Assembly (NCBI GenBank): GCA_022825065.1
Contig: JAJDYR010000022.1
Coordinates: 203,802 to 267,801 of the forward strand
Length of the DNA: 64,000 bases
Reading direction: 5' to 3'
DNA from: a bacterium
GTDB lineage: Bacteria > UBA8248
Part shown: positions 46,039 through 60,498 of the stretch, one piece after another
Layout of the letters: the number at the start of each line of letters is the position of its first letter
Position numbering within the stretch: the first letter of the stretch is position 1
Made by a program: the position numbers and the translations under genes
The notes under the pieces: generated by a model
Seen by the model: only the letters and a program-made list of their open reading frames with translations
What the model was told of the DNA's origin: nothing
Databases searched by the model: none

Positions 46039-46047
46039 GTCATACTC

Positions 46048-47196
46048 CTAGCCCAGGGCCTGTAGCTTTATGTTTATGCTCATCTCGCTGCCATCGCGCA
46101 TCAATCGCACTTCCACCACGTCGCCCACCTTGTGCGCATCGAGGGCGTCCAGCAGGTCATCGAGCGAAGTGATGGAGTGCTCTCCCACGCCGACAATCAC
46201 GTCGCCGAGCACGAGGCGGCCTTCCCGGTTTCTCCCGGTGCCGCGCAACCCCGCGCCTTCCGCCGCGCTGCCTTTTTGCACGCGGATGATCAGTACGCCC
46301 CGCACGCCGAAGCGCTCCGCCGTACCCTTGTCCGCCACATGGATGCCGAGCCCGGGCCTGATGACGCGGCCATGACGGAGCAACTGGGGCACCACCCGGT
46401 TCACCGTATCCACGGGAACCGCAAAACCGATGCCCGCGTTGGAGCCCGAGGGGCTGAAAATAGCGGTGTTGACGCCTATCAGGCGCCCGGCGCTGTCCAG
46501 AAGAGGCCCCCCGGAATTGCCCGGATTGATCGCGGCGTCGGTCTGGATGACGCCGCTGATCTTGCGGCCCGACACGCCGTTGATCTCACGCCCCAGAGCG
46601 CTGATGATTCCCGTCGTGAGCGTCTGGTCCAGCCCGAAGGGATTGCCGATGGCGAACACACGCTGGCCCACCTGCAGGTTCGCGGACTGGCCGATGGCGA
46701 TAGGCTTCAAGCGATCCCTCGGCGCGTTGATGAACAGAACCGCCAAATCCTGATCCGGCGCCCCGCCCACCACGCGCGCATCCCACTCGGAATTATCCGC
46801 CAGGGTGACGCGCAGGGCGCTCGCTCCCTGGATGACGTGAAAATTGGTGATGACGTGGCCCTGATCGTTCCAGACGAAGCCCGAGCCCGTGCCCTGCGGA
46901 ATCTCGAACAGATTGAGGCTGAACCTGTCGCGCCTCATCGCCAATCTCGTGATGTAGACGACCGACGGAGAGGAGAGACGGAAAAGCTCTATGTTGGATT
47001 TTTCCTCGGCGGCGAGATCCCCGCGCGGGGTGACGACGCGGGGCACGGCGTCCGGATCGTGGAAGTTGTCGAAATATCCCCTGGCGAAAAGCCACGCGAG
47101 TACAACACCCGCAAAAAATACGCACCAGACGAACCATCGCCATGCGCCGGCATACACGAGACCTCCGCGCCTGAATTCACGACCTCCCCCGTTCAT
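46048..47196 (-). CDS. HtrA/DegP-like serine protease with one PDZ domain
   Basis: TM anchor, GSGF, TNFHV, DLAVL, INPGNSGG. Confidence 0.95.
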   Translation of the reverse strand: MNGGGREFRRGGLVYAGAWRWFVWCVFFAGVVLAWLFARGYFDNFHDPDAVPRVVTPRGDLAAEEKSNIELFRLSSPSVVYITRLAMRRDRFSLNLFEIPQGTGSGFVWNDQGHVITNFHVIQGASALRVTLADNSEWDARVVGGAPDQDLAVLFINAPRDRLKPIAIGQSANLQVGQRVFAIGNPFGLDQTLTTGIISALGREINGVSGRKISGVIQTDAAINPGNSGGPLLDSAGRLIGVNTAIFSPSGSNAGIGFAVPVDTVNRVVPQLLRHGRVIRPGLGIHVADKGTAERFGVRGVLIIRVQKGSAAEGAGLRGTGRNREGRLVLGDVIVGVGEHSITSLDDLLDALDAHKVGDVVEVRLMRDGSEMSINIKLQALG

Positions 47197-47825
47197 TCCG
47201 ACTCCTCACTCCGCGTCCAGGGCAGGCTCATGAAAGCACGCTCGCAGTCTGCGCGCAAAGAAGGCTCATCCCGGGAGCACCTCGCGATGATATGCGCGCC
47301 CTGAATCTGGGAGAAATAAGAACGCGCGAAAACAAGCGGGGTGATACGCCCCGGAAGGTCTCCTTCTTTCTGGGACTGCGCCAATACGAGGGCGATTCTC
47401 TCGAAAACGCCGTCCCACACCTTTTTCAGCTTCACGCGCATCTCCTCGTCCAGGGCGCTGAGCTCGAGCGAGAGGTTCCCGATGGGGCATCCGCAGCACG
47501 GGGAATCCTGAATCGGCATGCGGGCGTAGGACTCCGCCAGACGCCTGATTTTCTCACGCCCCCTCGCCTGAATATCAAACGACGGAGAGAGGTAGTTTTG
47601 ATGAAGAAGCGATTCGTAATGATCGATGACGGCGAGCCCCAGGTTCTTCTTGGAGCGGAAAAAATAATACAAACTCCCCCGGTTCACCCGGGCGGCCTGC
47701 GCGACCATATCGAGCGACGTGGCGTGAAAACCATTTTGATAGACGAGCCGCGCGGCCGCATCTATGATTTTTTGTTTCGTCGCGGACGCCTTGGGGCCTT
47801 TGGGCGTCGCCGTTGCTGATTCCAT
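47193..47825 (-). CDS. TetR/AcrR family regulator (NemR/ComR-like)
   Basis: HTH with GSLYYFFRSK; C-terminal PCCGCPIGNL. Confidence 0.93.
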   Translation of the reverse strand: MESATATPKGPKASATKQKIIDAAARLVYQNGFHATSLDMVAQAARVNRGSLYYFFRSKKNLGLAVIDHYESLLHQNYLSPSFDIQARGREKIRRLAESYARMPIQDSPCCGCPIGNLSLELSALDEEMRVKLKKVWDGVFERIALVLAQSQKEGDLPGRITPLVFARSYFSQIQGAHIIARCSRDEPSLRADCERAFMSLPWTRSEESE

Positions 47826-47950: not shown

Positions 47951-48889
47951 TTATGTGGAAAGTTCTCGCAAATGCGCGACGACGGAGCGCTCCAATGCGT
48001 CGAGGTTGTATCCGCCCTCGAGAAGACAGACAAGCCGCCCCTCGCAGAGGTTTTCGGCAAGCGCCCTCACCCACTCGGTCAGACGGGCGAACCCGGCTTC
48101 GGTGATCATCAGCCCCCCGAGCGGATCGTCTCGGTGCGCGTCGAACCCCGCCGATACGACGACCGCTTCGGGCCCGTGCACCTCGATGGCGGGGATGACG
48201 CTCTCCTGAAACCTCGCCAGATATTGCTCCTCGGGCGTTCCCGCTGGGACGGGAATGTTGAGCGTCGCACCCTCGCCCGCTCCTTCTCCGGTCTCGCCTG
48301 CGAGCCCCGTACCGGGGTAGTGGGGATGCTGGTGCAGGGAGACGAAAAGCACGTCCGGATCGCTCCAGAAGATATCCTGCGTGCCGTTTCCGTGATGCAC
48401 GTCCCAATCCACCACGGCGATTTTCCGGAGGCCGTGTTTTTCCTGCAGATACCGGACCAGGATGGAGGCGGTGGCGAACAGGCAGAAACCCATGGATTGA
48501 TGGGGCAAGGCGTGATGGCCCGGCGGTCTGGCGGCGCAAAAGGCGTTATCGGCTTCACCGGCCACGACGGCATCCGCCGCGCTCAGGGCCGCATCCACGG
48601 CGGCGAGGGCGGCCTCATAGCTACCAGGGCCTGCCAACGTGTCGCCGCCATCCAGAACGCACCTGCCGCCTGCGCACGCTTCTCGCACGAAGCGGTGGTG
48701 CGATTCCTCATGCACCCTCAGAACCCACTCCTCAGCGTCGTGAGGCTTAATCTCCATGTGTTTGAGCGATGGAACTTGCGGGAGAATTCTCTCGGGCGCC
48801 AGGCGTCTTGCGCGCTCGACGTTCTCCACATGCCGGCCGTTGTCGTGCATGAGAGATTCGGGCGTCCAGAAATACGCGGTCCGGCTCAA
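47951..48889 (-). CDS. Histone deacetylase family amidohydrolase
   Basis: RPPGHH, MGFC, DWDVHHGNGTQ, SAGFDAH..DPLG, LEGGY. Confidence 0.96.
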   Translation of the reverse strand: MSRTAYFWTPESLMHDNGRHVENVERARRLAPERILPQVPSLKHMEIKPHDAEEWVLRVHEESHHRFVREACAGGRCVLDGGDTLAGPGSYEAALAAVDAALSAADAVVAGEADNAFCAARPPGHHALPHQSMGFCLFATASILVRYLQEKHGLRKIAVVDWDVHHGNGTQDIFWSDPDVLFVSLHQHPHYPGTGLAGETGEGAGEGATLNIPVPAGTPEEQYLARFQESVIPAIEVHGPEAVVVSAGFDAHRDDPLGGLMITEAGFARLTEWVRALAENLCEGRLVCLLEGGYNLDALERSVVAHLRELST

Positions 48890-49803
48890 TGGAGTCTCAC
48901 CCTTGGGTCGAGGACGGAATACATCATGTCAACGATGAGGTTCAAAGACACGAAAATCAGGGCGGTGATGGTCACCGAAGCCTGCACAAGCGGGAAATCC
49001 TTGGCGTAGACGGCCTGAATCAGGAGCCTACCCACGCCCGGCCAGGAGAAAATCGTCTCGACGATCACCGCTCCCCCCAGCAGATGCCCGAATTCCAGGC
49101 CGATGATGGTGATCACCGGAATCAGGGAGTTTCTGAGCACGTGCAGGTTGACGACGGCCCACTCGGAGAGTCCCTTCGCGCGGGCGGTCTTCACGTACTC
49201 ATGGCGCAGCACCTCCAGCATGGAGCTTCGGACCACCCGCGCATTTCTGGCAATCGAGTAGGTGGAAAGCGCGATGGCGGGCAGCACCAGATGCTCCCAG
49301 CCGCCTCTCCCGCTGACGGGCAGCCACCTCAGACCCACCCCGAAGACGAGGATCAGCATCAAACCGAGCCAGAAAACAGGCATGGATTGTCCAAGGAGCG
49401 CGAATAGCATCCCCCCGTGATCATACGGAGAGCCGCGCTGCGTCGCGCTGATGATCCCTACCGGAAACGCCAGGATGACCGAGAGAAGCAGCGCCACCAG
49501 GGCGAGTTCCAGCGTCGCCGGCAGACGCTCCATGATGAGTTCGAACGCTGGCTGGCGGTAGCGCAGGCTTTCTCCGAAATCACCCTGCACGGCCCGGCCC
49601 ACGTAGCGCGCGTACTGGACGAACCAGGGCTTGTCCAGACCCAGGTCTTCTTTGAGCTTCTGGACCTCCTCGACCGTCCAGTCCTCGCCCACCATGGTGT
49701 CGGTCGGGTCGCCCGACAGGAACAAGACGGCGAACGAGATAAAGCTCACGCCGACTACGACCACGACGGCCCGAAGAAATCGTCTGAAAAGATAGGCGCC
49801 CAT
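48886..49803 (-). CDS. Peptide/nickel ABC permease (DppB-like)
   Basis: GDP, LGLDKP, YVKTARAKGL, ETIFSWPGVG. Confidence 0.95.
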   Translation of the reverse strand: MGAYLFRRFLRAVVVVVGVSFISFAVLFLSGDPTDTMVGEDWTVEEVQKLKEDLGLDKPWFVQYARYVGRAVQGDFGESLRYRQPAFELIMERLPATLELALVALLLSVILAFPVGIISATQRGSPYDHGGMLFALLGQSMPVFWLGLMLILVFGVGLRWLPVSGRGGWEHLVLPAIALSTYSIARNARVVRSSMLEVLRHEYVKTARAKGLSEWAVVNLHVLRNSLIPVITIIGLEFGHLLGGAVIVETIFSWPGVGRLLIQAVYAKDFPLVQASVTITALIFVSLNLIVDMMYSVLDPRVRLH

Positions 49804-49806
49804 CGT

Positions 49807-51354
49807 CTATTCTTTCGTTTCTTTCAACCGAATCGTGGGCAGGTAGATTCTCTCGTCCGGCCTCGGGGTCCATTGCGTCCTGGCGCTCAAGCCGAAAAAA
49901 TCATACTGGTTCCAGAGAAATACCCACGGGCTTTCTTCATGAACGATGCGCTGCATCCGGTAGCTGATCCGCTTGCGCTCGGCGGGGTGGAACGCCTGAC
50001 CGAGCATCTTGTAATTTTGAATAAACTCCCGGTTTCTCCAGGCGGTGAGGTTCGCAAAAAGGTTGGGCCTCAACACGCCCAGGTCGAGTTCTTCGTTGAA
50101 AGCGGAGCTGAACCCGTGAAAATAAAGCGGCGCCAGCGTCTTTTTTCTTCTTCTGGCGAGAAAAACGGACCACTCCAGGGGAATCACCTCCACGCGGACT
50201 CCCACGTCGCGGAAATAAGCCGCCAAAAATTCCGCCATCTCCTTTCCTTTCAGATACCTGGAAGTGGGAACCTCGAGTTTCACCTCAAATGGCTTTCCAT
50301 CCGCCTCCAGGACACCGTCCCCATTCGTGTCCTTGAGGCCGGCCTCGGCGAGGAGCGCTTTCGCCTTTTGAGGGTCGTAGGCGTACGCCTTGATATTCGG
50401 GTCGGCGTTCGGGGGATTCACGATACTCTTCATCCGGGAGCCGTGACCCAGAAAAACGTTCCTGACGATGGCTTCGAAATCAATCGCGTGGTTCAGCGCC
50501 CGGCGAACGCGAGGGTCGCCGAGCACCCCGTGATCCGTGCGAATCCCCAGATAAATCCTGCGTCCCCCCCGAGCACCTTTGAGCTGGAGACCCTCTTCTC
50601 TCGCCAGAATGGTTTTCGATTGATCGGGCGAGATGTTCATGATGACGTCGGCCCCGCCCGTCTCAAGCTCCCCGATGCGGGCCGAAGCCTCGGCCACTGG
50701 ACGCCAAACCACTTTTTTTATGGCGGGCTCACCCCGCCACCAGTTCTCGTTGGCCTCCATCTCGACGTGGTCGTCCTTGACCCATCTCACCAGCTTGTAG
50801 GGCCCCGAGCCCACGGGTTTCTTCAACAGTTCCTTGGGCGGGGTCGATGAATAATACCCGGGCGGCAGCATGAACGCGTTCACCATCCACACAGGCAGGG
50901 TGGCGACCGGGCGCTTCGTGTGAATCTTCACGGTGTGTGAGTCCACTTTTTCTATCTTGTCCAGGAAAATCCGCCTGTACACGGTGATGCGCGGCTTGAG
51001 TTTCCTGTCCCGCATCCGCTCGAAGGTGTAGCGCACGGATTCCGCATCGAACGGCTCACCGTTATGAAACTTCACACCCTTGCGTAGATGAAACGTCCAG
51101 ACCTTTTTCGTCTCGTCCACCTCCCAGCGTTCGGCCAGGGCGGGCCCCAGCGTCATATCGCCGCGCCGCTCGATGAGCGGGTCGAACATGTTCATCAATA
51201 TGCTCCACTCGATGGTGGCCGTGGCGAAATGGGGGTCGAGCGTATTGGCTTCCACCGAGAGGAGAACCGTGAAGGGGCCCTGTTTCGCTTCGCGGCCGCA
51301 GGCGGCGAGCGCCACGAGCAGCAGGCAAAATCCGCACAACAAGGCCCTTTTCAT
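49807..51354 (-). CDS. Peptide/nickel ABC substrate-binding lipoprotein (SBP family 5)
   Basis: Lipobox LAAC, LRKGVKFHNG, PVGSGPY, RVRRALNHAID. Confidence 0.95.
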   Translation of the reverse strand: MKRALLCGFCLLLVALAACGREAKQGPFTVLLSVEANTLDPHFATATIEWSILMNMFDPLIERRGDMTLGPALAERWEVDETKKVWTFHLRKGVKFHNGEPFDAESVRYTFERMRDRKLKPRITVYRRIFLDKIEKVDSHTVKIHTKRPVATLPVWMVNAFMLPPGYYSSTPPKELLKKPVGSGPYKLVRWVKDDHVEMEANENWWRGEPAIKKVVWRPVAEASARIGELETGGADVIMNISPDQSKTILAREEGLQLKGARGGRRIYLGIRTDHGVLGDPRVRRALNHAIDFEAIVRNVFLGHGSRMKSIVNPPNADPNIKAYAYDPQKAKALLAEAGLKDTNGDGVLEADGKPFEVKLEVPTSRYLKGKEMAEFLAAYFRDVGVRVEVIPLEWSVFLARRRKKTLAPLYFHGFSSAFNEELDLGVLRPNLFANLTAWRNREFIQNYKMLGQAFHPAERKRISYRMQRIVHEESPWVFLWNQYDFFGLSARTQWTPRPDERIYLPTIRLKETKE

Positions 51355-51375
51355 GCACGAGTTCCCTTCCGAAAC

Positions 51376-52335
51376 CTACATGTCATCGCCGAGACGGGGA
51401 TCCATGTAGTCCCTCAGCCAGTCGCCGATGAGGTTGATGCTCAGAACCGTCGCCATGATGGCGAGACCCGGGAAAGTCGCCATCCACCACGCGCCTCTCA
51501 GGTATTCGCGCCCTTCGGACAGCATGCCCCCCCAGGTGACGACCGAAGGCGGAACGCCGAACCCCAGAAAGCTGAGCGAGGATTCGGAAATGATGTTTCC
51601 CGCCACGGCGAAGGTGGCGATGACGATCAGAGGCGAGAGGGTGTTGGGCAGTATCTGCATGAACAGTATGCGGTACAAGGGGTAGCCCAGGGCGCGTGTG
51701 GCCTCCACGAATTCGCGCTCCCTTATCGAGATGACCTGTCCTCTCACCACGCGGCCGTAAGCCACCCACCGGCTGATGCCCAGCACCACGATGATGTTGA
51801 GCAGGCCCGGCCCGACGACCGCCATGATCGTGAGGGCCAGGAGCATAAAGGGAAACGCCAGTTGAATCTCGGAAAACCCGCTGATGAGATCGTCGATTTT
51901 TCCGCCGAAAAAACCGGAAACAAGTCCCAGAACGATGCCGATCACTCCTGAAATCACCACCGAACTCAAACCCACGAGAATGGAGACGCGGCCCCCGTAC
52001 ATGAGCCGGCTCAAAACGTCCCGGCCCAGCGCGTCGGTTCCCAGAAAATAGCGCGCGCTTCCCCCCTCCACCCAGACAGGCGGCTTCAGGCGCAGGTTGA
52101 CGTCCACCAGGCTCGGGTCTTGCGGCACAATGAGAGGGGCAGAAAAAGAAACGACCACCAGCAGGATGAGAAAAACGCCCCCGAGCATCGCCGGTTTGGC
52201 GCGCATCAAGCTGCGGCGGAATTTCGCCCACCGGAGCTCCGATTCCGACATTATCGGGTATACATCCGGTTCAGAGGCCGACTCGGGCATATTTCCCTGT
52301 TCAGACATTCGCCTGCTCTCGCGTCTTGTTGACAT
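51376..52335 (-). CDS. Peptide/nickel ABC permease (DppC-like)
   Basis: LGTDALGRD, LSFLGFG, WGGML. Alternative start 52308. Confidence 0.95.
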   Translation of the reverse strand: MSTRRESRRMSEQGNMPESASEPDVYPIMSESELRWAKFRRSLMRAKPAMLGGVFLILLVVVSFSAPLIVPQDPSLVDVNLRLKPPVWVEGGSARYFLGTDALGRDVLSRLMYGGRVSILVGLSSVVISGVIGIVLGLVSGFFGGKIDDLISGFSEIQLAFPFMLLALTIMAVVGPGLLNIIVVLGISRWVAYGRVVRGQVISIREREFVEATRALGYPLYRILFMQILPNTLSPLIVIATFAVAGNIISESSLSFLGFGVPPSVVTWGGMLSEGREYLRGAWWMATFPGLAIMATVLSINLIGDWLRDYMDPRLGDDM

Positions 52336-52433
52336 ATTTCGTGAGTTGAGCCGCTCCGCATCCTAGCATAGCGGAACGCGCGTTGCAGAAGCCCCGGGGG
52401 TGGAATCGCCGTCCCCTGAAACGTCGATTCATG

Positions 52434-52463
52434 TTGATATCCGCAAGGCTATCGAATTAGAAT
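52434..52463 (+). promoter_or_regulatory. Putative sigma70 promoter of the ATP-grasp operon
   Basis: TTGATA-18 bp-TAGAAT. Confidence 0.5.
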
Positions 52464-52529
52464 CGCCTGTTTTTTGATTTTGAGGCCGTCTGATCATTCA
52501 TACTGCTTCCCGAAGAAGGAAAGTTTTCC

Positions 52530-53966
52530 TTGCCTCGTCACACGAAAGATGAATTCAACGAAGTGTTGACTTCTGCCGTTCCGGCAGGCTCGACGTTCGG
52601 CTTTCAGGGTCTGCGCGCGGTCGATTCCATTACCGTGGAAAACATCGTGCCCCTCGATTTCCTCATCGCCTGTGATTACGGGCTCGACGGACCGGAGTGG
52701 GACAGGCGCCTGCGCTATTTCGCCGTGGAGCGCGGAGGGAAAAGGCGAATCGTGTGGACGCACTCATCACTCGTGGAAGCGTACGAAGGCGCCCTGGGTC
52801 CTCAAATCCGGGAGTTTCTGTCGCAAGGGGACGCTCCCCGGTACGTCATCCCCTACCGCTCGACGGAATTTCTCGGCAAGCTCGCCGAAGAAGCCGGGGG
52901 CAGGCTCCGCATTCTGGCGAACCCGGTGGAAATCAAGACGAGATTCGACGACAAGATTTCGTTCCGCCGCCAGGCGGTCGAAGCAGGGTTCGCCGTTCCC
53001 CCGGGCGACGTAGTGGCCCTGGGCGAACTCGGACTCAAGGAGCTTGGGCAATTCGGCCCCGTTATGATCATTTCGGAGCGAATCGGTTCCTCCGGCAACC
53101 AGACGCACTTCATCGACTCACCCGAGGCGCTCGGGACGAAACGGGATGAACTCATCGGGAAACTGGGAGCCGATGCGCCGGTGATCGTGAGCACGTTTCT
53201 GGATGGCCCCGCCGTCGGCACGGCGGGGTTGATTTATGACGGCAAACCCCGGATGTCCCACCCCTCGGTGATGTTCACGGGAATTCCCGGCTGCTCCATG
53301 CACCGCTTCGATTACGCCGGAAGCGACTATGCGGCGTATCGGCTGGTTCCGGGGGAGAGCCGGCGAAAAATCGAAGAATTCACCCTGAAAATCGGAGAGT
53401 GGATAGCAGAGGCGGGCTACCGGGGAATATACGGCGTCGATTTCATCGTCCATGAGAACGAACCCTATGCCCTCGAGCTCAATCCGCGCGTACTCGGAAC
53501 CACGCAACTGATGACCGAACTCGAGGAAATACACGGCGACGCACCCACCACCACCTACTGGCATCTGGCCGAATTCCTGAAGCCGGGCGACGCTCTCGAC
53601 GCGCATCAGGACTTGCTCGCCGAACTCGGCCGGCCGGATTTATCCGGTTTCCAGCTCCTGATTCGAAACACGAGTCCTTCGAGGGTGCGAATCGGCTCCT
53701 CGCTGGAACCCGGCATCTATGCTATCCAAAACGGGGAGCCCGAATTCATCCGGCGGGGGTATCGCCTGAGCGACGTTCAAGACCGGGATGAAGTGCTGGT
53801 GACTTGCTCTCCCCCGGCGAAAGGCACCATAGTAGAGCCGAGGGGAGCGTTCTGTAAGCTCGAGGGCGTTTCATCCATCTATGAAGGGGGAGAAAAGCAG
53901 ATATCTCCGTACGCCCGGGAAATGATTGACAGTTTCACGCGCCGCCTCGCGCTTTCTCCCGCTTAG
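52530..53966 (+). CDS. ATP-grasp ligase (PGM1/biotin-carboxylase-like subfamily)
   Basis: DDK, GSSGNQT loop, YRGIYGVDF, ELNPR; TTG start with aagga SD. Confidence 0.85.
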   Translation: MPRHTKDEFNEVLTSAVPAGSTFGFQGLRAVDSITVENIVPLDFLIACDYGLDGPEWDRRLRYFAVERGGKRRIVWTHSSLVEAYEGALGPQIREFLSQGDAPRYVIPYRSTEFLGKLAEEAGGRLRILANPVEIKTRFDDKISFRRQAVEAGFAVPPGDVVALGELGLKELGQFGPVMIISERIGSSGNQTHFIDSPEALGTKRDELIGKLGADAPVIVSTFLDGPAVGTAGLIYDGKPRMSHPSVMFTGIPGCSMHRFDYAGSDYAAYRLVPGESRRKIEEFTLKIGEWIAEAGYRGIYGVDFIVHENEPYALELNPRVLGTTQLMTELEEIHGDAPTTTYWHLAEFLKPGDALDAHQDLLAELGRPDLSGFQLLIRNTSPSRVRIGSSLEPGIYAIQNGEPEFIRRGYRLSDVQDRDEVLVTCSPPAKGTIVEPRGAFCKLEGVSSIYEGGEKQISPYAREMIDSFTRRLALSPA

Positions 53967-53979
53967 GACATCGTGGAAA

Positions 53980-55149
53980 TTGAAAATAGATTCTTTCGCA
54001 TCCACCGCCCGGGGTCTGTTCCTCTCTCCTGAGAGTCCGTATGTCTTTCAGGCGGATTTCACGCCCGACCCGCAGCCCGTTCCTTCCAACGGCATCTTCC
54101 TGGGTGAGGTCGTTGACGTTCCCGAAAACGCGCCCATTGATCGCCTGGAAACGCTCGAAGCTCTCCAGGGAACGCAAGACGCCTGGAAAACGAGCGAAAT
54201 GAAATTGCGCGAAAAAACGAACGTGGCCGTGACAATCGGCGGGCGCTATGCGAACCGCAGCGTCTCGGGCCGCGTGCCGGACTCGCCCGCAGAGCCTGGC
54301 GTCATACTCGACCTGTTGAATACCGGCGGCGTCTGCGGGGTCCGCACGAACCCCGATACGCCGTGCGTGAAAATAGAGGTGAAAGGGGGCGTCGCGCTAC
54401 GAGGCGAACCCGCCACGCTTTCTCATCTCCCCGTCATTCCCGATACCCGGTGCCCGGTGGATGAAGAGGGAATTCCCTGCGCTCCCATCATCCTGGTCAC
54501 CGGCTCCGAGATGGACGTGGGCAAGACGACCTGCGCGTCTTCGCTCGCCTCCGCCCTCCACTCCTCGGGTATCCACGTCTCATACGTGAAACTGACCGGA
54601 ACGGGACGCATGCGGGATCTCATGCAGGTAAACTACGGAAGACCGCTCGGGTTTTTCGACTCCGCGAGACTCGGGTGGGATTTCGTCGATGCGGGTCTCG
54701 CTTCCACATGCGGCGTCTCCAGTCACAGGGCCAGGCGATGCGCCCAGAACCTGCTTCGCCACGGCTGCGCGAAGGCGGAGATCGTCATTGCGGAATTGGC
54801 GGATTCCCCGTCTTCCGACGCCAGCCTCCACGTAGCGAGCGACCCCTGGGTCAAAGACTGGCTCGCGCGCAGAGGCCTGATAATCTGCGCATGTGATACG
54901 CTGGAGTCAACGCTCATCGTTCACTGGATACGGAGCCACCTGGAAGTGGAGGAGGAAAACATGCTCATTTCCGGAAAGCTCGCGAACGAAGCGCATGCGC
55001 GCGAGGAGGCGTACCGCATGACCGGCATCCGCGCCCTTAGTTGCACAGCTCCGAATCCCTCCTCCCTCGCCGGCGAGAGGGCTGTTGGCGGAGCCATTGC
55101 GGACTGGGTGGCCAAACACTTTATGCGCCAGCGCAAGTCGGTCTTCTAA
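53980..55149 (+). CDS. DUF1611-related P-loop protein
   Basis: GGRYA, GGVCG, VTGSEMDVGKTT, KLTGTG..RD, DFVDAGLAST, ELAD. Start uncertain (TTG 53980 or 53926). Confidence 0.75.
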   Translation: MKIDSFASTARGLFLSPESPYVFQADFTPDPQPVPSNGIFLGEVVDVPENAPIDRLETLEALQGTQDAWKTSEMKLREKTNVAVTIGGRYANRSVSGRVPDSPAEPGVILDLLNTGGVCGVRTNPDTPCVKIEVKGGVALRGEPATLSHLPVIPDTRCPVDEEGIPCAPIILVTGSEMDVGKTTCASSLASALHSSGIHVSYVKLTGTGRMRDLMQVNYGRPLGFFDSARLGWDFVDAGLASTCGVSSHRARRCAQNLLRHGCAKAEIVIAELADSPSSDASLHVASDPWVKDWLARRGLIICACDTLESTLIVHWIRSHLEVEEENMLISGKLANEAHAREEAYRMTGIRALSCTAPNPSSLAGERAVGGAIADWVAKHFMRQRKSVF

Positions 55150-55160
55150 AAGAGAAAACC

Positions 55161-56777
55161 TTGGCCCCGTACAAGAGAGCAAATCATCCCCTCATCGCGC
55201 GGGAACCTTCTCTGTATCACCTCACGCCGGATGCGAGCGGCGGCGTCTGGGATCTGAACCGGTTGAGCCGGGAATTCGACTCGCCCGCCGGCGACCTGAA
55301 TGAAACCCTGATCGAAAGCCTCAACCAATGGGCGTCGCGCGAACCTCGATTCGCAGACTTCCGCATCGTAAAAGACGCATCACCCATTCGGCTTCCGGGA
55401 GAGATACTTTTGCTGGACGGCTCCCCGAGCCGACTCCCCCTCACCATGGAAACGGCGCGGGTGATGCGGGCGCACCTGAGTCAACTGGGGTTGTCCATCC
55501 CCGTCAGGGTCTTGAACCGGCGCGAGGAACTTCTGGCGCGCGCCGCCAAGGCGCCGAGAGAACTCCTCGTCATCAGCCAGACCGCCCAGAGAAGCCTCTA
55601 CGACGCAACCCTCGCGAAGGTTCTCGAATCGCGGGGAATCGTCGTGGTGCCCGGGCCTCTCACCGCTCCCGGCGGGCCGCTGTCCAACAAGAAAACCACA
55701 TACGAACTCCTGAACGGAAACGGCGCTGACGCGAAAAACCTGCACCTGGATGGTTCCGGGCGTCATCTGACGGCCGGCTATGAAGTGGTGGAATCAAACG
55801 GAGGGCGGCCTGCGGATACCGCCGCAGCCATTCTGGACAAGGCTTCCGCCCTGTCGAAGAAGTGGGGCGCCACGACTTTCTTCGTCAAACCGCAGGAAGG
55901 CGGCGGCGGACGCGGATGTTTTCGGCTGGACGTCTACCCCAATGGGTTCGGTCTGCCGGATTTGAGCAGACTTGGCGTCGCAACACGCCATGCGGCCCCT
56001 CAGCCCTTGTCTATCGACGCGGAAAACCACGACCACCTTCGGGCGATGGACTGGCTCGTTCATCGCTTCCAGGCCAGCCCGGCGACCTCGAAAGCCTACA
56101 TCAAGACCCGAATGGTGGGAGGCGGCGCTCCCCCGGACGTCCTGGGTCAGATGCTCAGAAACTGCGCGCCCAGACTCGAATCCGAACTACGCGAATCCGC
56201 CCGATCACGCGAAGAATCGCTGCGCCTTTTGTCGAGCGCCATCGAGAACTACGAGCAGGTGTTCGACGCGCGCTACCTGCCGCTGATATGCAACTGGATC
56301 GATTTCGGCCTGTTCAGCGTTCGCGTTCATCTGAGGCTCAGCCGCGAGGGAATGGTCGTGGAAACGCTCTACGCCAGGCTCTTTCCGGTGGAATTCTCGG
56401 ATGATTCGATCGGCGTCGTCGGCGTGGACAGCATCACGAACCGCACGGAGGGGGGCATGGAACTGAACCGCTATACGCCTTTGGTTCCGCCCCTGGTCGC
56501 CTATGCGGGAGGGGCCGAGAGATTGTGCGAGAAGCTTCGCGGCGCTTTCGATGCGTTCGCGCGCTTTTTGACTCTCGTCGACCCCTCTGAGCGCGGCAGG
56601 ATTCCGGTTCGGGCCGAATTCGACCTCTCGCCCCTCAACGGACTGATCGCCGAGGGCAACGCCGATCCCGTCCGCGCCCAGTGCGCAAACAGCCGCTGGG
56701 CAAGATTCTCTGAAAACAGCGCGCAGTGGGCGGAGGACGCCCTGTCGCTCTACTCATGGAAATCTCAAAAACTCTAA
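55161..56777 (+). CDS. Divergent ATP-grasp protein (YheC/D-like)
   Basis: SNKKTTYELL, FFVKPQEGGGGRG, FSVRVHL, EFDLS, EGNADP (ExN). Start uncertain (TTG 55161). Confidence 0.72.
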   Translation: MAPYKRANHPLIAREPSLYHLTPDASGGVWDLNRLSREFDSPAGDLNETLIESLNQWASREPRFADFRIVKDASPIRLPGEILLLDGSPSRLPLTMETARVMRAHLSQLGLSIPVRVLNRREELLARAAKAPRELLVISQTAQRSLYDATLAKVLESRGIVVVPGPLTAPGGPLSNKKTTYELLNGNGADAKNLHLDGSGRHLTAGYEVVESNGGRPADTAAAILDKASALSKKWGATTFFVKPQEGGGGRGCFRLDVYPNGFGLPDLSRLGVATRHAAPQPLSIDAENHDHLRAMDWLVHRFQASPATSKAYIKTRMVGGGAPPDVLGQMLRNCAPRLESELRESARSREESLRLLSSAIENYEQVFDARYLPLICNWIDFGLFSVRVHLRLSREGMVVETLYARLFPVEFSDDSIGVVGVDSITNRTEGGMELNRYTPLVPPLVAYAGGAERLCEKLRGAFDAFARFLTLVDPSERGRIPVRAEFDLSPLNGLIAEGNADPVRAQCANSRWARFSENSAQWAEDALSLYSWKSQKL

Positions 56778-56866
56778 GTTAGAATCAACCGGCCCGCGTT
56801 CGTTTCTATTCGAGGAATCTCGCGGGGCGGGAATCGCGCGAAAGATCCTCATCCAGCGCTCTAGAA

Positions 56867-59800
56867 GTGAGCGAAATGGCGAAACTCCTCAAAAAAGCGT
56901 TCAACATCCAGGAAGAGGAGTTGCTCGTCTTCTCGGTGTTCTTTTTCTTCTACTTCCTGATCGGGGTTCAGTTCTCCATCGGGCTCACCGTATCCGAAGC
57001 GCTGTTCCTCTCGGAAATCGGCCCGGGTTTTCTCCCCTATATGTACATATTCAACGCCCTGATGATCATCTTCATCAGCACGTTCTACTCCTCGCTGACC
57101 GAAAAACTCTCCATCCCGGCGATGTTCAAGACCGTCCTGATATTTTTCATCGCCCTCGTATTCGGCATCAAGCTGCTCATCTTCGCGGATTTCCGCGCCT
57201 ACGCGATGCCGATCGCATTCCCGCTCCTCCACACGCTGTTCGTGATGTTCACGAACATGCTGCCGAACAATTTCCGCGCCCTTTACGGGCAGTATTTAGA
57301 CGTATTGCAGTCGAAGCGGCTGGTTCCGATCATCCTCACGGGCGGGCGCTACGGCGGCATCGTGGGCGGCCTCGCCATTCCGCTGCTCATCCCCGTGCTC
57401 GGGAGCGTCTCGAATCTGCTCTACGTGTGGATTGGAGCCATCGTGGTCAGCATCGGGGTGGTGCAATACGCCGAATGGCGGCTCAGAGACCACCTCATCG
57501 ACGATGCCCGTCCCAAAAAGCGCAAGACGAAGAAGACGGCCTCAAAAGGCGGCAACCTCGCACTGATGAAGACGAACCGGTACGTCTGCGCGTTCGCCCT
57601 GTTCAGCTTCATCGTGGTGATCCTCAGGAGTTTTCAGGACTTCCAGTACAGCCTCGTATTCCGCGAGGTCTTTCCCGACCGCGCGCAACTCGCCTCGTTC
57701 CTCGGATATTTCACCGCCATCGGAAGCGCCTTCTCCCTGCTCGTCCAGACGTTCATCACCCCGCGCATCATCAAGCGGCTCGGCCTGGGCACTGCGAACC
57801 TCCTCTACCCGCTCACGACCATCATCGGCCTCGCCGGCATGGCGATCTCACCCGGCTTCTATTCCGCCGTCTTCCTGCGCTTCAACAACAAGAATCTCCA
57901 GGAATCGATTCGAAACGCCATCAACGCCCTGCTCTACAACGCCGTCTCCCCTTCGATCCGCGCGAGGGTCGGCGCGTTCGTCGCGGGCCAGGTGGTCGCC
58001 GTGGCCAGCATCGTCAGCGGCGTCGCCCTGCTCATCATCAAGCCCACCGGTCTCGCCCTCTTCCCGCTCAGCGCAGGCCAACTGGCGCTCATCTCCTTGT
58101 TCATCGCCTTCGCCTATCTGGCCGTCGGCTTCTTCGTGCGCCGTGAATACGGGGCCGCCCTGCGCCGGATGCTCGAGGAGAGGAACCTGGGGTTATTCCG
58201 CTACGCCCAGGAGGGGTTCGGCCCGGTTGACGACGAGAACATGGCGATACTCAGAAAAAACATCCGCGAGGGGGACGACGACCTTTGCGTCTTCACCGCC
58301 CGGATGATGGCGGAAAGCGGCAGAAGCGAGACTTTCTCTATTATCCTCGGGGAAATCCCGCGGCGAAAGGGATATGCCGCGGCCGAGTTGCTCAAAATTC
58401 TCGCCAGGGCTCCAGGAGCCGAAGAAGGCGAGAAAATGCGACCCTTGCTGCTGGAATACCTCACCTGCGGGGAGCCCGTCCTGCAATGCGCCGCCATGGA
58501 CGCGGCGGAAACGGTCGGGCTCACCGATGAGACGGCGGAGCTGGTTCATGAAAATCTGGAGAACCGATCGCCTGAGGTCAGGGCGCGCGCCGTCGAACTG
58601 CTGGTGCGCTCCGACGATCTGTTCTGGCTCGCCAACGGACTCCAAACGCTGCACCGGATGCTCAACGAAGAAGACGCGGCGGCGAGGGTCTGCGCCCTGC
58701 GGTGCATGGGGGAACTTCAGAACCCGCGCTTCATCAGACGCTTGATCCCCTATCTCTACCAGGAAGAGGAAAAAGTCCGCGAAGCCGCTTTGGAGGCGAT
58801 AGAAGTACTGGCCCTGAACCAGGGGGTCGATGAGGAGAAGATGGAGGAAGTCATCCGGGTGACCACTTCGGATGAGAGTGCGGCCATCAGGCGCAGAGGC
58901 GTCAGGCAACTGGGCAACAAGGGCTCGAGGGAGAATTTCGAACGCGTCCTGACCGCTCTTTCGGACGTCGACTCGCTGGTGAGGAGACAGGCCGTCGATT
59001 CGCTCAAGAACATGAAGCGAAAAGGAACCCTTTCTCTCGAGGGCTCGGGTCTGATTTCATTCGCCGCCCCGCTTTTGTTCAGAAGCGCCAAAAACGGCTC
59101 CCGCGAAATGAGCGCGCAGGAAATCGTGGACTCCCTCTCCGGGTTCGCCGTGGAGCACCTGAAGGAAGTCTACGGCGTCATCAATCACCTCCACGTCATC
59201 GAAAGCCGGGAAAACGCATCCGCCTTCACGATGTTGAGAAAAGCGCTCGAAGACGTCGTCGCGGAAAGGCAACTGGTTTTGCTGGAATTATTGGGGGTGA
59301 TAGGAGACGAGAAAACGGTGGACACCGTGTCGGAATCCCTCGCCCGTGGCGGCTCCTCATCGAGGGCAATCGCCATCGAGACGCTCTCGAACTTCTCCTC
59401 GACCGGCAATACGAGAGTCCTCATTCTCGCCCTGGAGCCTCTGTTGCTGGGCAGGTCGACAGCCGACAAGGTTTCCGAGGGCAGGAAACTTTGGGAGATA
59501 CCCGATGAATCGATTGGCGAGGTGCTCTCGACATACATGAATTCCGAAAACGCGTGGCTCCAGGCCATCGCTCTCGACGCGGCGGGCAAGCATCTCCAAA
59601 GCGAAGCGGGTGGAGCAGCCGCCGAGTGGCGCGAGCAGTTCAGGGCGCGGGCAACCGAGGACGACCCGTACGTCCGCGAGGCGGCGGTTGCCGCATTGAA
59701 AATTATCGGGAAAGATGAAGACGACGTTGAGGCGTTCTTGAGAACCATGGAGAATGACGAGAACCAAATGGTGCGCATTCAGGTGCGCCGCGAGTTACTC

Positions 59801-60274
59801 CGTTACGAGGACGGTGGGGAAAATTTATCCAGGCAGGAGAAAATCATGCTCTCGACCATCGAAAAAGCCCTGTTTCTGAAAGGCGTCAACATGTTCGAGA
59901 CGATGAGCGCGGATGAACTGAAAATACTGAGCAACATTTCCAGGGAAATCCAGATTGAGGCGGGCAAGGTTCTTTTCGAGCAAGGAGACTCTTGCGACTA
60001 TCTCTACGTCATCGTGGACGGGGAAATCGAAATCATCCTCAATCAGGAGGACGCAGAGCCCAGGATTCTCGCCACGCTCGGCCCGCCGACCTCTTTCGGC
60101 GAAATCGCGCTCTTTGGCGATGAGGGCAGGAGCGCAGGCGCGCGCGCGAGCAAGGACACCTCTTTGCTCGGCATCGAGAAAGAACCCCTTCTCGAACTGA
60201 TTCACGAGCACCCCACCATCTCCATCGCCATCATCGGCCAACTGGCCGGCATCATCAGAAGCCAGAACGAATAG
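56867..60274 (+). CDS. NTT/Npt-like MFS membrane domain + HEAT repeats + cyclic-nucleotide-binding domain
   Basis: About 12 TM helices with KRLVP and LLYNAV motifs; HEAT-like repeats (PEVRARAV, KVREAAL, LVRRQAV, PYVREAA); C-terminal FGEIAL...RSA phosphate-binding cassette. Confidence 0.9.
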   Translation: MSEMAKLLKKAFNIQEEELLVFSVFFFFYFLIGVQFSIGLTVSEALFLSEIGPGFLPYMYIFNALMIIFISTFYSSLTEKLSIPAMFKTVLIFFIALVFGIKLLIFADFRAYAMPIAFPLLHTLFVMFTNMLPNNFRALYGQYLDVLQSKRLVPIILTGGRYGGIVGGLAIPLLIPVLGSVSNLLYVWIGAIVVSIGVVQYAEWRLRDHLIDDARPKKRKTKKTASKGGNLALMKTNRYVCAFALFSFIVVILRSFQDFQYSLVFREVFPDRAQLASFLGYFTAIGSAFSLLVQTFITPRIIKRLGLGTANLLYPLTTIIGLAGMAISPGFYSAVFLRFNNKNLQESIRNAINALLYNAVSPSIRARVGAFVAGQVVAVASIVSGVALLIIKPTGLALFPLSAGQLALISLFIAFAYLAVGFFVRREYGAALRRMLEERNLGLFRYAQEGFGPVDDENMAILRKNIREGDDDLCVFTARMMAESGRSETFSIILGEIPRRKGYAAAELLKILARAPGAEEGEKMRPLLLEYLTCGEPVLQCAAMDAAETVGLTDETAELVHENLENRSPEVRARAVELLVRSDDLFWLANGLQTLHRMLNEEDAAARVCALRCMGELQNPRFIRRLIPYLYQEEEKVREAALEAIEVLALNQGVDEEKMEEVIRVTTSDESAAIRRRGVRQLGNKGSRENFERVLTALSDVDSLVRRQAVDSLKNMKRKGTLSLEGSGLISFAAPLLFRSAKNGSREMSAQEIVDSLSGFAVEHLKEVYGVINHLHVIESRENASAFTMLRKALEDVVAERQLVLLELLGVIGDEKTVDTVSESLARGGSSSRAIAIETLSNFSSTGNTRVLILALEPLLLGRSTADKVSEGRKLWEIPDESIGEVLSTYMNSENAWLQAIALDAAGKHLQSEAGGAAAEWREQFRARATEDDPYVREAAVAALKIIGKDEDDVEAFLRTMENDENQMVRIQVRRELLRYEDGGENLSRQEKIMLSTIEKALFLKGVNMFETMSADELKILSNISREIQIEAGKVLFEQGDSCDYLYVIVDGEIEIILNQEDAEPRILATLGPPTSFGEIALFGDEGRSAGARASKDTSLLGIEKEPLLELIHEHPTISIAIIGQLAGIIRSQNE

Positions 60275-60401
60275 CCTGGAGAAGGAGCGGAAGCGGGGGC
60301 ATGAACGCCCGCCTTCTTCTTCGTGAACCACCTTGTGTTTTCTGCATATTCCCGCCGTATGCAGGCTGAATTACGCTACGTTAAAACTACCCGCTCTGCG
60401 G

Positions 60402-60430
60402 TTGACGCCCGTCCTGCCCATACCTATAAT
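60402..60430 (+). promoter_or_regulatory. Near-consensus sigma70 promoter of the octaheme cytochrome gene
   Basis: TTGACG-17 bp-TATAAT. Confidence 0.8.
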
Positions 60431-60498
60431 CAGCCGGATTTTAGCCAAAGAACCCGGATTTTCCGCTCAGAACGCCGGTGGGGGAGCGTTTTTTCACG

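Follow-up and report, generated by a model that had tools for sequence, protein, structure and literature searches.

Two different ATP-grasp ligases, encoded by genes that we call g1 and g3, form a conserved core that travels together across at least five phylum-level groups of bacteria and is often translationally coupled. We analyzed this pair in a Nitrospinota genome that is 93.8% complete, within a window of 64,000 nt, i.e., the whole stretch of DNA under study. There, the two ligase genes lie on the + strand in a cluster with g2, which encodes a P-loop protein, and g4, which encodes an NTT-HEAT-cNMP membrane protein. An earlier, sequence-only reading of the window took the four genes for one candidate system. 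This view had to be narrowed, since only the g1+g3 pair crosses phyla, and g2 and g4 join it in one Nitrospinota order. Our preferred proposal, held tentatively and at slightly less than even confidence, is that g1 and g3 make a small amide-linked product by successive ATP-dependent ligations.

The four co-oriented genes are all present as + strand ORFs where the sequence-only reading had placed them. The first three have TTG starts: g1 (52530..53966, 478 aa), g2 (53980..55149, 389 aa, longest ORF from 53926), and g3 (55161..56777, 538 aa, longest ORF from 55041). The gaps of 13, 11, and 89 nt given by that reading are reproduced with its start codons. In 27 related four-gene loci, g1 and g2 are separated by 12-27 nt (with one outlier), g2 and g3 by 12-29 nt, and g3 and g4 by 58-110 nt. 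The claim that all four genes use TTG or GTG starts holds for the first three but not for g4. Among loci with more than 70% identity, the TTG start is kept in 20/20 for g1 and in 20/20 for g2, while g3 has TTG in 14 of 21 loci and GTG in two. For g4, the GTG at 56867, which would give 1135 aa, is not conserved, whereas the ATG at 56876 is found in 21/21 loci. Hence, g4 (56876..60274, + strand) encodes 1132 aa and the gap between g3 and g4 is 98 nt. The motifs quoted earlier are all present in the translations: GVDF and ELNPR in g1, GSEMDVGKTT, KLTGTG, and DFVDAGLAST in g2, and VKPQEGGGGRG, SVRVH, and EGN in g3.

A profile of g3 recovered 77 loci, 31 of the Nitrospinota type and 46 in more distant groups, namely Omnitrophota, Elusimicrobiota, Desulfobacterales, and KSB1. 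In 44 of these 46 distant loci, the gene immediately before the g3 homologue is a homologue of g1 (24-33% identity); the other two loci are cut by a contig start. The two genes are very close: the median spacing in 29 distant pairs is 10 nt, 23 of them are at most 60 nt apart, and several overlap by 4 nt. Neither g2 nor g4 was found in any of the 46 distant loci. In a quick tree of g3 with a midpoint root, built after dropping 14 close rows, the Nitrospinota-type rows lie together on one side of a branch whose SH-aLRT support is 99%. In the other phyla, a MATCAP/DUF1704 gene (PF08014 at 2.9e-53, HExxH and EEGLA present) immediately precedes the pair in 22 of the 30 distant loci examined, or 22 of the 27 having upstream sequence, with a median gap of 4.5 nt. 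The g3 homologue is followed by the gene of the peptide transporter CstA in 16 of these 30 loci. A transporter gene thus follows g3 in both versions of the locus, g4 in the Nitrospinota type and CstA in the distant one. The MATCAP/DUF1704 and two-ligase unit of Omnitrophota, Elusimicrobiota, Desulfobacterales, and KSB1, which is uncharacterised, has the same ligase families, order, and tight spacing as our cluster, but it has MATCAP upstream, lacks g2 and g4, and often continues with CstA. We found no g2 in five genomes with MATCAP-type clusters. Searches for MATCAP with the PF08014 model and by homology gave no match in the window or in the genome, which is weak evidence because the controls were silent too and the genome is 93.8% complete.

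The sequence of g1 identifies it as an ATP-grasp ligase. It exceeds the cut-off of PF02655 (ATP-grasp_3) with 28.9 bits against 23.2 over residues 145-324, and matches NCBIfam PRK06524 with 65.2 bits (E 3e-18) without reaching the cut-off of 684. Its profile matched, in the PDB, carbamoyl-phosphate synthetase (4e-8), pyruvate carboxylase (1e-7), 7r8p (1.8e-7), and BesA (3.8e-5), with PGM1 absent from the matches at E up to 0.1. Hence, of the earlier label of a PGM1/biotin-carboxylase-like ATP-grasp, we keep the ATP-grasp and drop the likeness to PGM1, whose family cut-off is missed. Comparison of 21 sequences, with identities as low as 24%, shows no variation at K136/K142, D304, and N318, and conservation of at least 90% at E316. 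From what is known of the family, we take these to be the ATP-binding lysine and the D...E-x-N metal-binding residues. The GVDF and ELNPR motifs are encoded at 53433-53444 and 53475-53489 (+ strand). The weak named neighbours of g1 are BesA, LdmS, and MfnD, which are small-molecule amino-acid ligases.

The second ligase, g3, is assigned to the ATP-grasp enzymes with a three-domain fold by its predicted fold only (pLDDT 85, pTM 0.88). Foldseek matched the model to DcsG/Ddl at 1.6e-6. With VIA-align, the best scores were those of ArgX (Z 19.3, 274 of 538 residues, rmsd 3.4), DcsG (18.7), LysX (18.6), Ddl (18.0), and RimK (17.5), and 665 of 1000 chains reached Z >=8; of the matches listed, nearly all are ATP-grasp enzymes. 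The fold common to g3 and LysX, ArgX, and RimK, as well as DcsG, Ddl, and GshB, extends over 269-284 residues with an rmsd of 3.2-3.4 and Z of 17.5-19.3. The LysX/ArgX/RimK branch also has the KP-x-x-GGGG-type loop and the E-x-N metal site of g3, whose motifs are encoded at 55881-55916 (FVKPQEGGGGRG) and 56652-56660 (EGN), on the + strand. Yet g3 differs from these enzymes in being unrecognised by sequence models and in carrying about 260 extra residues. In the model, these include an N-terminal extension (around 1-78) and a helical insert (around 285-370), in agreement with the earlier description of g3 as a second, unrelated ATP-grasp with a large insertion. LysX, ArgX, and RimK act on protein C-termini and DcsG and Ddl on small molecules. 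The Z scores of these two sets differ by only about 1-2 units, an observation that goes against a small-molecule reading.

Searches of Pfam and NCBIfam gave no match to g3 at E up to 0.1, and the best match of its profile to PDB sequences was unrelated (E 0.15). Among 1.84 billion cluster representatives, the profile matched only 43. By their appearance, these are family members or fragments, apart from P0146, a low-complexity artefact, and none provides a sequence bridge to known families. There were no fused forms of g3 among the longer proteins, which is weak evidence. The RimK model PF08443 does not match g3 but matches two other places of the genome, which encodes a canonical RimK elsewhere. 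The invariant residues of g3 are K243, G247-G250, D488, E498, and N500. The lysine, the Gly-rich loop, and the D...E-x-N residues are thus invariant in both ligase families (E316 of g1 nearly so), and both enzymes have intact ATP/Mg2+ motifs.

These results bear on the kind of substrate that is ligated. In a rival reading, g3, together with g1, would append one or more amino acids to a protein or peptide C-terminus, and the MATCAP of other phyla would remove them in a cycle of writing and erasing. Such cycles have parallels in tubulin tyrosination and in the modification of ribosomal protein S6 by RimK. This tailing is in line with ArgX, LysX, and RimK being among the top fold matches of g3, with the position of MATCAP directly upstream of the pair, and with about 180 extra residues of g3, which could bind a macromolecule. 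To our knowledge, the only MATCAP relatives characterised so far are protein carboxypeptidases, a point against a small-molecule product. However, we found no conserved target in the neighbourhood. Clustering of 227 small ORFs (25-90 aa) lying no more than 3 kb from the pair in 30 of the distant loci gave no conserved candidate for a precursor or carrier peptide, in accordance with the earlier remark that no precursor was seen; the small-ORF clusters common to several loci resemble translated tRNA genes (putatively). The pair thus differs from LysX and RimK in that we found neither a LysW-like carrier nor an S6-like target near it. The C-terminus of the neighbouring g4 is not conserved either (E in 15 of 25 loci, otherwise G, A, S, D, K, or N), on which ground we rejected its tail as the ligase target. 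Further points against tailing are that the genome already has its canonical RimK, that g1 has small-molecule ligases as its weak named neighbours, and that MATCAP was not found in this genome, although the latter weighs little. Overall, we consider tailing a serious rival, though an unlikely one. We find it likewise unlikely that g1 and g3 are the "writers" of an unknown C-terminal tail that is added and trimmed, with MATCAP as the eraser elsewhere, or the makers of new ribosome-independent peptides, and that in Nitrospinota a BioD-like enzyme caps or cyclises the product in place of the eraser, with the cyclic-nucleotide-gated NTT-type protein being co-opted.

The two ligases might also build a non-ribosomal amino-acid polymer, branched as cyanophycin or similar to polyglutamate. 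One ligase would extend the backbone and the other would add the side chains, with MATCAP and the peptide transporters serving turnover. A repeat of two residues would need two different ligases, as found here, and RimK, which makes poly-alpha-glutamate, is among the fold matches of g3. The carboxypeptidase and CstA beside the pair in other phyla, and the opp genes beside it here, would fit as well. But Pfam, NCBIfam, and PDB profile searches gave no similarity to cyanophycin synthetase or Mur-type ligases, and we saw no sign of a primer or an anchoring protein. Moreover, the conserved TTG starts of g1-g3 suggest a low expression, which one would hardly expect for a storage polymer. A polymer is, hence, very improbable in our view.

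The gene between the two ligases encodes a P-loop protein of the BioD/DUF1611/CTP-synthase kind. Its model (pLDDT 90) has an all-beta part, at residues 1-165 or so, and a C-terminal domain resembling BioD, DUF1611, and CTP synthase. The P-loop GSEMDVGKTT is encoded at 54502-54531 (+ strand). With VIA-align, g2 matched TM0796 (2g0t, Z 14.6), CTP synthase (Z 14.3-14.6), DUF1611 (2obn, Z 14.0), BioD (Z 12.9), and DgcN (7xrj, Z 12.8), the last being a DUF1611-type N-acetyltransferase. A two-domain comparison, in which 2obn, 2g0t, and 7xrj tied with CTP synthase and BioD, barely covered the N-terminal part. The C-terminal domain thus has the P-loop fold of BioD, of the amidoligase domain of CTP synthase, and of DUF1611/DgcN (Z 12.8-14.6). 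BioD also has in common with g2 the G-x-x-x-x-V-G-K-T loop and a second conserved lysine (KxTGTG), and it was matched in a PDB profile search over residues 166-227 of g2 at 3.6e-6. Yet g2 differs from all three families by its all-beta N-terminal 165 residues and by missing all family cut-offs: it has 16.8 bits against 25 for PF07755 (DUF1611, residues 168-211 only) and 23.1 bits against 83.3 for TIGR00347 (BioD, 40 residues). All its Pfam matches are below the cut-off and the family-model matches span only around 45 residues; one relative, P0101, is just above the cut-off of PF07755 (26.2 bits). Hence, of the earlier label of a DUF1611-like P-loop protein, the P-loop and the kind of fold stand and the membership of the DUF1611 family is not supported. 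G181, K182, T184, K204, D234, D237, E272, and D306 are invariant. As far as we know, the position between two ATP-grasp ligases differs from the gene context of BioD or DgcN. Literature searches for DUF1611 and DgcN gave unrelated matches, with only unrelated acronyms among those listed for DgcN.

The fourth gene encodes a protein with about 10 hydrophobic segments in residues 13-424 according to a hydropathy scan (NTT/MFS-like), HEAT repeats at around 470-990 (HEAT_2, 89.8 bits, cut-off 27.7), and a cNMP-binding domain at around 1026-1112 with FGE...RSA (72.5 bits, cut-off 27.5). The fusion of a membrane part, HEAT repeats, and a cNMP domain is thus as first described, with a length of 1132 instead of 1135 aa. 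The membrane part has 17.7 bits for MFS_1, below the cut-off of 33.4, and does not match TLC (PF03219). Its Atlas features, a language-model lead only, place it at 0.98 with TLC/MFS clusters (29/30 matches), in which 54-96% of the members carry TLC. According to the available part of Major et al. (2017, Genome Biol Evol, PMC5381601), NTT-HEAT-cNBD fusions with the same three-part architecture are a widespread monophyletic bacterial family of uncharacterised function that occurs without these ligases. That part of the source mentions no link to ligase genes, unlike the locus of g4, which further differs from these fusions in that the Pfam TLC model misses its membrane part.

The four genes could still form one system, in which the compound made by g1-g2-g3 would be exported or sensed by g4, dedicated to this task and gated by cyclic nucleotides. 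In 29 of the 31 Nitrospinota-type loci, g4 follows g3, down to 37% identity, and the other two are cut by a contig end. Among 41 relatives, g3 was found in 25, g2 in the same 25 and in G014, and an orthologue of g4, full-length or contig-cut, in exactly the 25 with g3; three genomes without g3 (G054, G055, G058) gave no g4 orthologue. In G014, g3 and g4 are deleted together and g1 has an internal deletion. We conclude from two related genomes that have lost parts of the cluster that it is dispensable. However, related genomes are not independent, and other neighbours behave similarly. A divergent block at 47951..52335, all on the - strand and annotated with Pfam, encodes a histone-deacetylase-family amidohydrolase (47951-48889), an OppB-like permease (48886-49803), a family-5 solute-binding protein (49807-51354), and an OppC-like permease (51376-52335). 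This block, which we treat as context only, is kept beside the cluster in Nitrospinota-type loci and was lost along with cluster genes in G014 and G062. A cytochrome c gene is likewise syntenic with the cluster in the Nitrospinota order. Since the opp, HDAC-like, and cytochrome c genes are equally syntenic, synteny in Nitrospinota says little about a functional link.

Candidate transcription signals also bear on a four-gene system. A promoter-like site upstream of g1 (52434..52463, + strand, TTGATA-18-TAGAAT, 10/12 matches) lies in a block conserved in most of 29 aligned rows. The sequence-only reading had assumed this single promoter for the four genes, but g4 has its own conserved promoter-like site (56757..56785, + strand, TGGAAA-17-TAGAAT, 9/12 matches), with the -35 within the final codons of g3 and the -10 just past its stop. 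In an alignment of 28 rows, the g3-g4 spacer has a single conserved non-coding element, the -10 hexamer (TAGAAT in 22, TAGACT in three, TATAAT in one, and two divergent). On the other hand, both sites have the identical -10 region, TTAGAATC, and the + strand between g3 and g4 showed no terminator-like site. Contigs from RNA libraries (X1-X3, from coral and sponge metatranscriptomes of two studies, 90-99% alike) match the final 148 nt of g1 and parts of g2, g3, and g4, with none on most of g1 and none spanning the g3/g4 spacer. As such libraries may contain DNA, these contigs demonstrate neither transcription nor operon structure. A search for known RNAs, riboswitches included, gave no match in 51500-61000 at E up to 1. 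Given the separate promoter-like site, the absence of g4 from the distant loci, and the fusions that occur in bacteria without the cluster, we regard the dedicated four-gene system as somewhat unlikely.

Under our preferred proposal, g1 and g3 would perform two successive ATP-dependent condensations, each forming an acyl-phosphate that is then attacked by an amine. The product could be, for instance, a dipeptide, a tripeptide, or an N-modified conjugate of an amino acid. More broadly, the chemistry first suggested from sequence, i.e., a short peptide, an amino-acid polymer, or a protein modification, is plausible. In one Nitrospinota order, g2 has been inserted between the ligases; as its P-loop domain folds like those of BioD, CTP synthase, and DUF1611/DgcN, it may catalyze a third reaction, for example, the activation of a carboxyl or carbamate group, or an N-acylation. 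Elsewhere, the accessory place is taken by the MATCAP/DUF1704 carboxypeptidase. As for g4, the weakest link of the scheme, it may move the product, the substrate, or nucleotides under cyclic-nucleotide control.

Two different ATP-grasp ligases also occur in one cluster in the rhizocticin (RizA/RizB) and phaseolotoxin operons, where two L-amino-acid ligases make tripeptide antimetabolites without ribosome or NRPS. In contrast with these clusters, the g1+g3 locus lacks warhead biosynthesis genes, and it is kept across phyla in chromosomal core-like contexts instead of sporadic secondary-metabolite islands. We found no described pathway of this composition in the literature, as the earlier reading had supposed, and no publication joining DUF1704, or MATCAP in bacteria, with ATP-grasp. 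For prokaryotic MATCAP homologs, the available text of the sources appeared to consist only of reviews on eukaryotic microtubules, and the only match for QEGLA was unrelated. An anti-phage defence system was considered and rejected: PADLOC gave no match on g1, g2, and g3 and only generic cNMP and HEAT domain matches on g4.

ATP-grasp ligases make products as diverse as glutathione, D-Ala-D-Ala, cyanophycin, peptide antibiotics, and protein tails. That Nitrospinota, Omnitrophota, Elusimicrobiota, and sulfate-reducer lineages all keep this ligase pair together suggests a product that has so far escaped recognition. One of the two enzymes, g3, belongs to a family of only around 40 clusters among 1.84 billion representatives, without sequence link to known families, and the hosts of the pair are environmentally important, mostly uncultured bacteria. 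The unit is now more sharply defined, with g1+g3 as the core, g2 as an addition, and g4 as separate. The identity of the product would give a first functional foothold for the bacterial MATCAP/DUF1704 peptidases and for divergent BioD/DUF1611-like proteins such as g2, and it might possibly also inform on the NTT-HEAT-cNMP proteins.

Four co-oriented open reading frames occupy the + strand from 52530 to 60274, as the sequence-only reading had reported: g1 (52530-53966, 478 aa, TTG start), g2 (53980-55149, 389 aa, TTG start), g3 (55161-56777, 538 aa, TTG start), and g4 (56867-60274, 1135 aa with the GTG start chosen in that reading). With these starts the intergenic gaps are 13, 11, and 89 nt, and every motif quoted in that reading was recovered in the four translations. 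It had also proposed that the four genes form one system. Homologues identify the source organism as an uncultured Nitrospinota bacterium, the window being contig 20 of its assembly. We collected the loci matching a g3 profile, with one genome per species, and recovered 77, of which 31 have the g1-g2-g3-g4 version (Nitrospinota-type) and 46 come from other groups. In the Nitrospinota-type loci, g2 is always present (31/31) and both g1 and g4 are found in 29, the two exceptions in each case ending at the contig start (g1) or the contig end (g4). This arrangement holds down to 37% identity. The 46 distant loci, from Omnitrophota (some of these MAGs being labelled Planctomycetia), Elusimicrobiota, Desulfobacterales/Thermodesulfobacteriota, KSB1, and others, have a g1 homologue directly 5' of the g3 homologue in 44 cases, and the other two end at the contig start. 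None of the 46 has a match to g2 or g4. Hence, the pair g1+g3 is conserved across phyla, while g2 and g4 accompany it only in Nitrospinota-type loci.

The distant loci have accessory genes of their own. ORF clustering of the 30 loci with the longest flanks revealed a gene of the MATCAP/DUF1704 carboxypeptidase family (PF08014, 2.9e-53; TIGR02421 'QEGLA', 1e-60, under its cut-off) preceding the pair in 22 loci, i.e., in 22 of the 27 having upstream sequence, and a CstA gene 3' of it in 16/30. The genes are closely packed, with a median gap of 4.5 nt between MATCAP and the pair and of 10 nt between the g1 and g3 homologues (at most 60 nt in 23/29, with several 4-nt overlaps). Further upstream, and mainly in Omnitrophota, are genes for a spore-photoproduct-lyase-like radical SAM protein (17/30) and a nitroreductase (9/30); the outer neighbours differ in the Elusimicrobiota versions. 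In locus L042 (5221-7328) and its Omnitrophota equivalents, the radical SAM gene and the nitroreductase gene, whose product has a hydrophobic N-terminus, are packed tightly 5' of the MATCAP-ligase-ligase-CstA array, and the two might belong to the Omnitrophota version of the system. Small 'ORFs' shared near some distant pairs (L048:890-1170, L053:10609-10807) resemble translations of tRNA genes. Since the pair is constant while g2/g4 and MATCAP/CstA vary between lineages, g1+g3 forms the invariant core, and what accompanies it depends on the lineage. A g2 profile had no match in five genomes bearing MATCAP-type clusters, and a MATCAP search of the present genome gave no match, although there the controls were silent too and the assembly (3.83 Mb) is 93.8% complete. 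In a g3 tree, obtained by a quick search with 14 close rows left out and only midpoint-rooted, the Nitrospinota-type rows fall on one side of a branch with 99% SH-aLRT support.

Within the phylum, g3 was identified in 35 of 51 genomes; by family, it is present in 32/41, 1/1, and 1/1 genomes of three families of one order, and in 0/7 of a fourth. Among 41 relatives, 25 carry g3, the same 25 carry a full-length or contig-cut g4 orthologue, and g2 occurs in these and in one more, G014. No g4 was found in the three g3-less genomes that we checked. In G014 (locus L093, G014:C1:2739000-2758900), only residues 1-61 and 388-478 of g1 are left, both g3 and g4 are missing, and the genes from oppC to oppB are remnants, with g2, the histone-deacetylase (HDAC)-like gene, and the cytochrome c gene intact. 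These deletions are separate: in the opp genes, within g1, and across g3-g4. In a second relative, G062 (locus L094, G062:C168:424-4332), a single deletion fuses the end of oppB to g4 at about residue 832, so that the opp genes and g1-g3 are lost along with the greater part of g4. As two relatives carry decayed versions, the cluster is dispensable. The separate deletions in G014 hint that opp genes, ligases, and g4 may share a fate, a hint that comes from two related genomes.

The opp genes belong to a divergent operon on the - strand (47951-52335) encoding an OppC-like permease, a family-5 solute-binding protein, an OppB-like permease, and a histone-deacetylase-family amidohydrolase; no ABC ATPase gene was seen adjoining it. 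Downstream of g4 lies a gene for a 982-aa multihaem protein with several cytochrome c domains (60478-63426), preceded by the highest-scoring promoter-like site in the region (60402-60430, TTGACG-17-TATAAT, 11/12). The divergent operon is retained beside Nitrospinota-type clusters (with no match to the HDAC gene in locus L083), and the cytochrome c gene is syntenic 3' of g4 in most of them. Synteny in this Nitrospinota order alone thus proves no functional link, since the opp, HDAC-like, and cytochrome c genes are conserved there as well. Beyond the operon, the - strand (43606-47825) encodes a TetR-family regulator, a PDZ-containing HtrA-like serine protease, and a P-type ATPase of the heavy-metal type, the first two being syntenic in most genus-level loci.

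The sequence-only reading had attributed all four genes to a single putative promoter. A consensus scan found promoter-like sites on the + strand before g1 (52434-52463, 10/12 matches) and before g4 (56757-56785, 9/12). The scan gave 4 sites in 8.8 kb for 1.9 expected from shuffles, which means little alone, and both sites gain weight because they are conserved across related loci. Upstream of g1, the block TTGATATC ... TTAGAATC is preserved in most of 29 aligned rows. In the g3-g4 spacer (28 aligned rows), the sole conserved non-coding element is a hexamer directly 3' of the g3 stop. It reads TAGAAT in 22 rows and TAGACT in 3; the most distant locus has TATAAT, and 2 rows diverge. The extended -10 region TTAGAATC is common to the g1 (52455-52463) and g4 (56778-56786) sites, behind which there could be a common sigma factor or regulator. 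Because the spacer site is conserved and shares this region with the g1 site, g4 probably has its own promoter, which contradicts the single-promoter view. No terminator-like site was found between g3 and g4, so that read-through into g4 is also possible. A search of 51500-61000 against Rfam gave no match. Three RNA libraries, coral and sponge metatranscriptomes from two studies, yielded contigs that map to pieces of g2, g3, and g4 and cover only the last 148 nt of g1, DNA carry-over being possible; none of these contigs bridges the g3-g4 spacer.

The start codons also set g4 apart. Among loci with more than 70% identity, g1 and g2 each retain their TTG start in 20/20 cases, and g3 has TTG in 14/21 and GTG in 2/21, the remaining five positions being probably mis-extrapolated. 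The g4 GTG at 56867 is not conserved, and an ATG at 56876 (MAKLLKK) is retained in 21/21, so the protein has 1132 aa and the spacer 98 nt; the earlier claim of TTG/GTG starts throughout stands for the first three genes only. A rare start codon is thereby kept genus-wide in three consecutive genes, with ATG kept in the next, and the TTG starts may reflect deliberately low or balanced translation of three enzymes.

The g4 protein has about 10 hydrophobic segments in residues 1-424 (hydropathy), HEAT repeats and a cNMP-binding domain that both exceed their cut-offs, and a readable FGE...RSA cassette. The proposed transporter-HEAT-cNMP fusion is borne out in these parts; the NTT/TLC likeness of the membrane part comes from language-model features only (0.98, 29/30 matches), Pfam giving there MFS_1 alone, sub-threshold. 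The NTT-HEAT-cNBD architecture is described by Major et al. (2017, PMC5381601) as a widespread, monophyletic, and uncharacterised family. It is the only part of the gene set already published, and our literature search found no paper on g1-g4 together. We doubt that g4 belongs to the ligase system as an integral component.

In the structure model of g2 (pLDDT 90), the N-terminal part is all-beta and is followed by a P-loop domain at the C-terminus. This domain matches TM0796/2g0t (Z 14.6), CTP synthase (14.3-14.6), DUF1611 2obn (14.0), BioD (12.9), and DgcN 7xrj (12.8), which are tied. Sequence matches to BioD (PDB, 3.6e-6) and to AAA_26, DUF1611_C, and CbiA (Pfam) span the P-loop stretch only, all under family cut-offs. 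The P-loop noted earlier is borne out, and DUF1611 is one of several tied fold neighbours, together with CTP synthase and BioD. As the P-loop, the second lysine (K204, in KLTGTG), D234/D237, E272, and D306 are invariant, g2 is likely an active nucleotide-dependent enzyme.

The g1 protein is an ATP-grasp, PF02655 exceeding its cut-off. It matches NCBIfam PRK06524 'biotin carboxylase' at 3e-18, yet far under the cut-off, and BesA, LdmS, and MfnD weakly. In the PDB, a profile of 21 homologues matches carbamoyl-phosphate synthetase, biotin-carboxylase domains, BesA, and 7r8p, an unnamed ATP-grasp structure; the homologue alignment shows conservation of both the Lys and the D...E-x-N residues. For g3, there was no sequence match in Pfam, NCBIfam, or PDB. 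Its structure model (24-sequence alignment, pLDDT 85, pTM 0.88) matches DcsG and Ddl in Foldseek (1.6e-6), and g3 is an ATP-grasp by predicted fold. About 274 of 538 residues align to ATP-grasp, the remainder consisting of an extension at the N-terminus and an insert of four helices (~285-370), which accounts for the 'large insertion' reported previously. Homologues down to 33% identity all retain K243, the GGGG loop, D488, E498, and N500. Searching 1.84 billion cluster representatives with the g3 profile gave 43 matches that, by appearance, resemble family members or fragments, apart from one inspected low-complexity artefact. By sequence, the family is small and isolated.

The VIA-align Z scores of g3 (ArgX 19.3, DcsG 18.7, LysX 18.6, Ddl 18.0, RimK 17.5) are effectively tied, and its named language-model neighbours (RimK, GSH-S_ATP, and YheCD clusters at 0.92) are a lead only. 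The resemblance to LysX/ArgX/RimK and the association of MATCAP with the pair would suit protein C-terminal tailing, with MATCAP as eraser. We consider this main rival unlikely: we found no conserved small ORF (precursor or carrier) within 3 kb of the pair in 30 distant loci, nor any conservation of g4 C-termini that would make this tail a ligase target, and the source genome encodes a canonical RimK at another site (G000:C9:28059-28622; PF08443, 161.7 bits). Polymer synthesis by the two ligases is much less probable still. We favour, at a little short of an even chance, a pathway in which g1 and g3 would carry out two successive ATP-grasp condensations yielding a small amide-linked product, and g2 would add a third nucleotide-dependent step in Nitrospinota; a transporter gene adjoins the ligases in both the Nitrospinota-type and the distant versions. 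More speculatively, the likeness of g2 to the N-acetyltransferase DgcN, together with the deacetylase-family enzyme and peptide-type importer of the divergent operon, would fit both the synthesis and the recovery of an N-acylated peptide.
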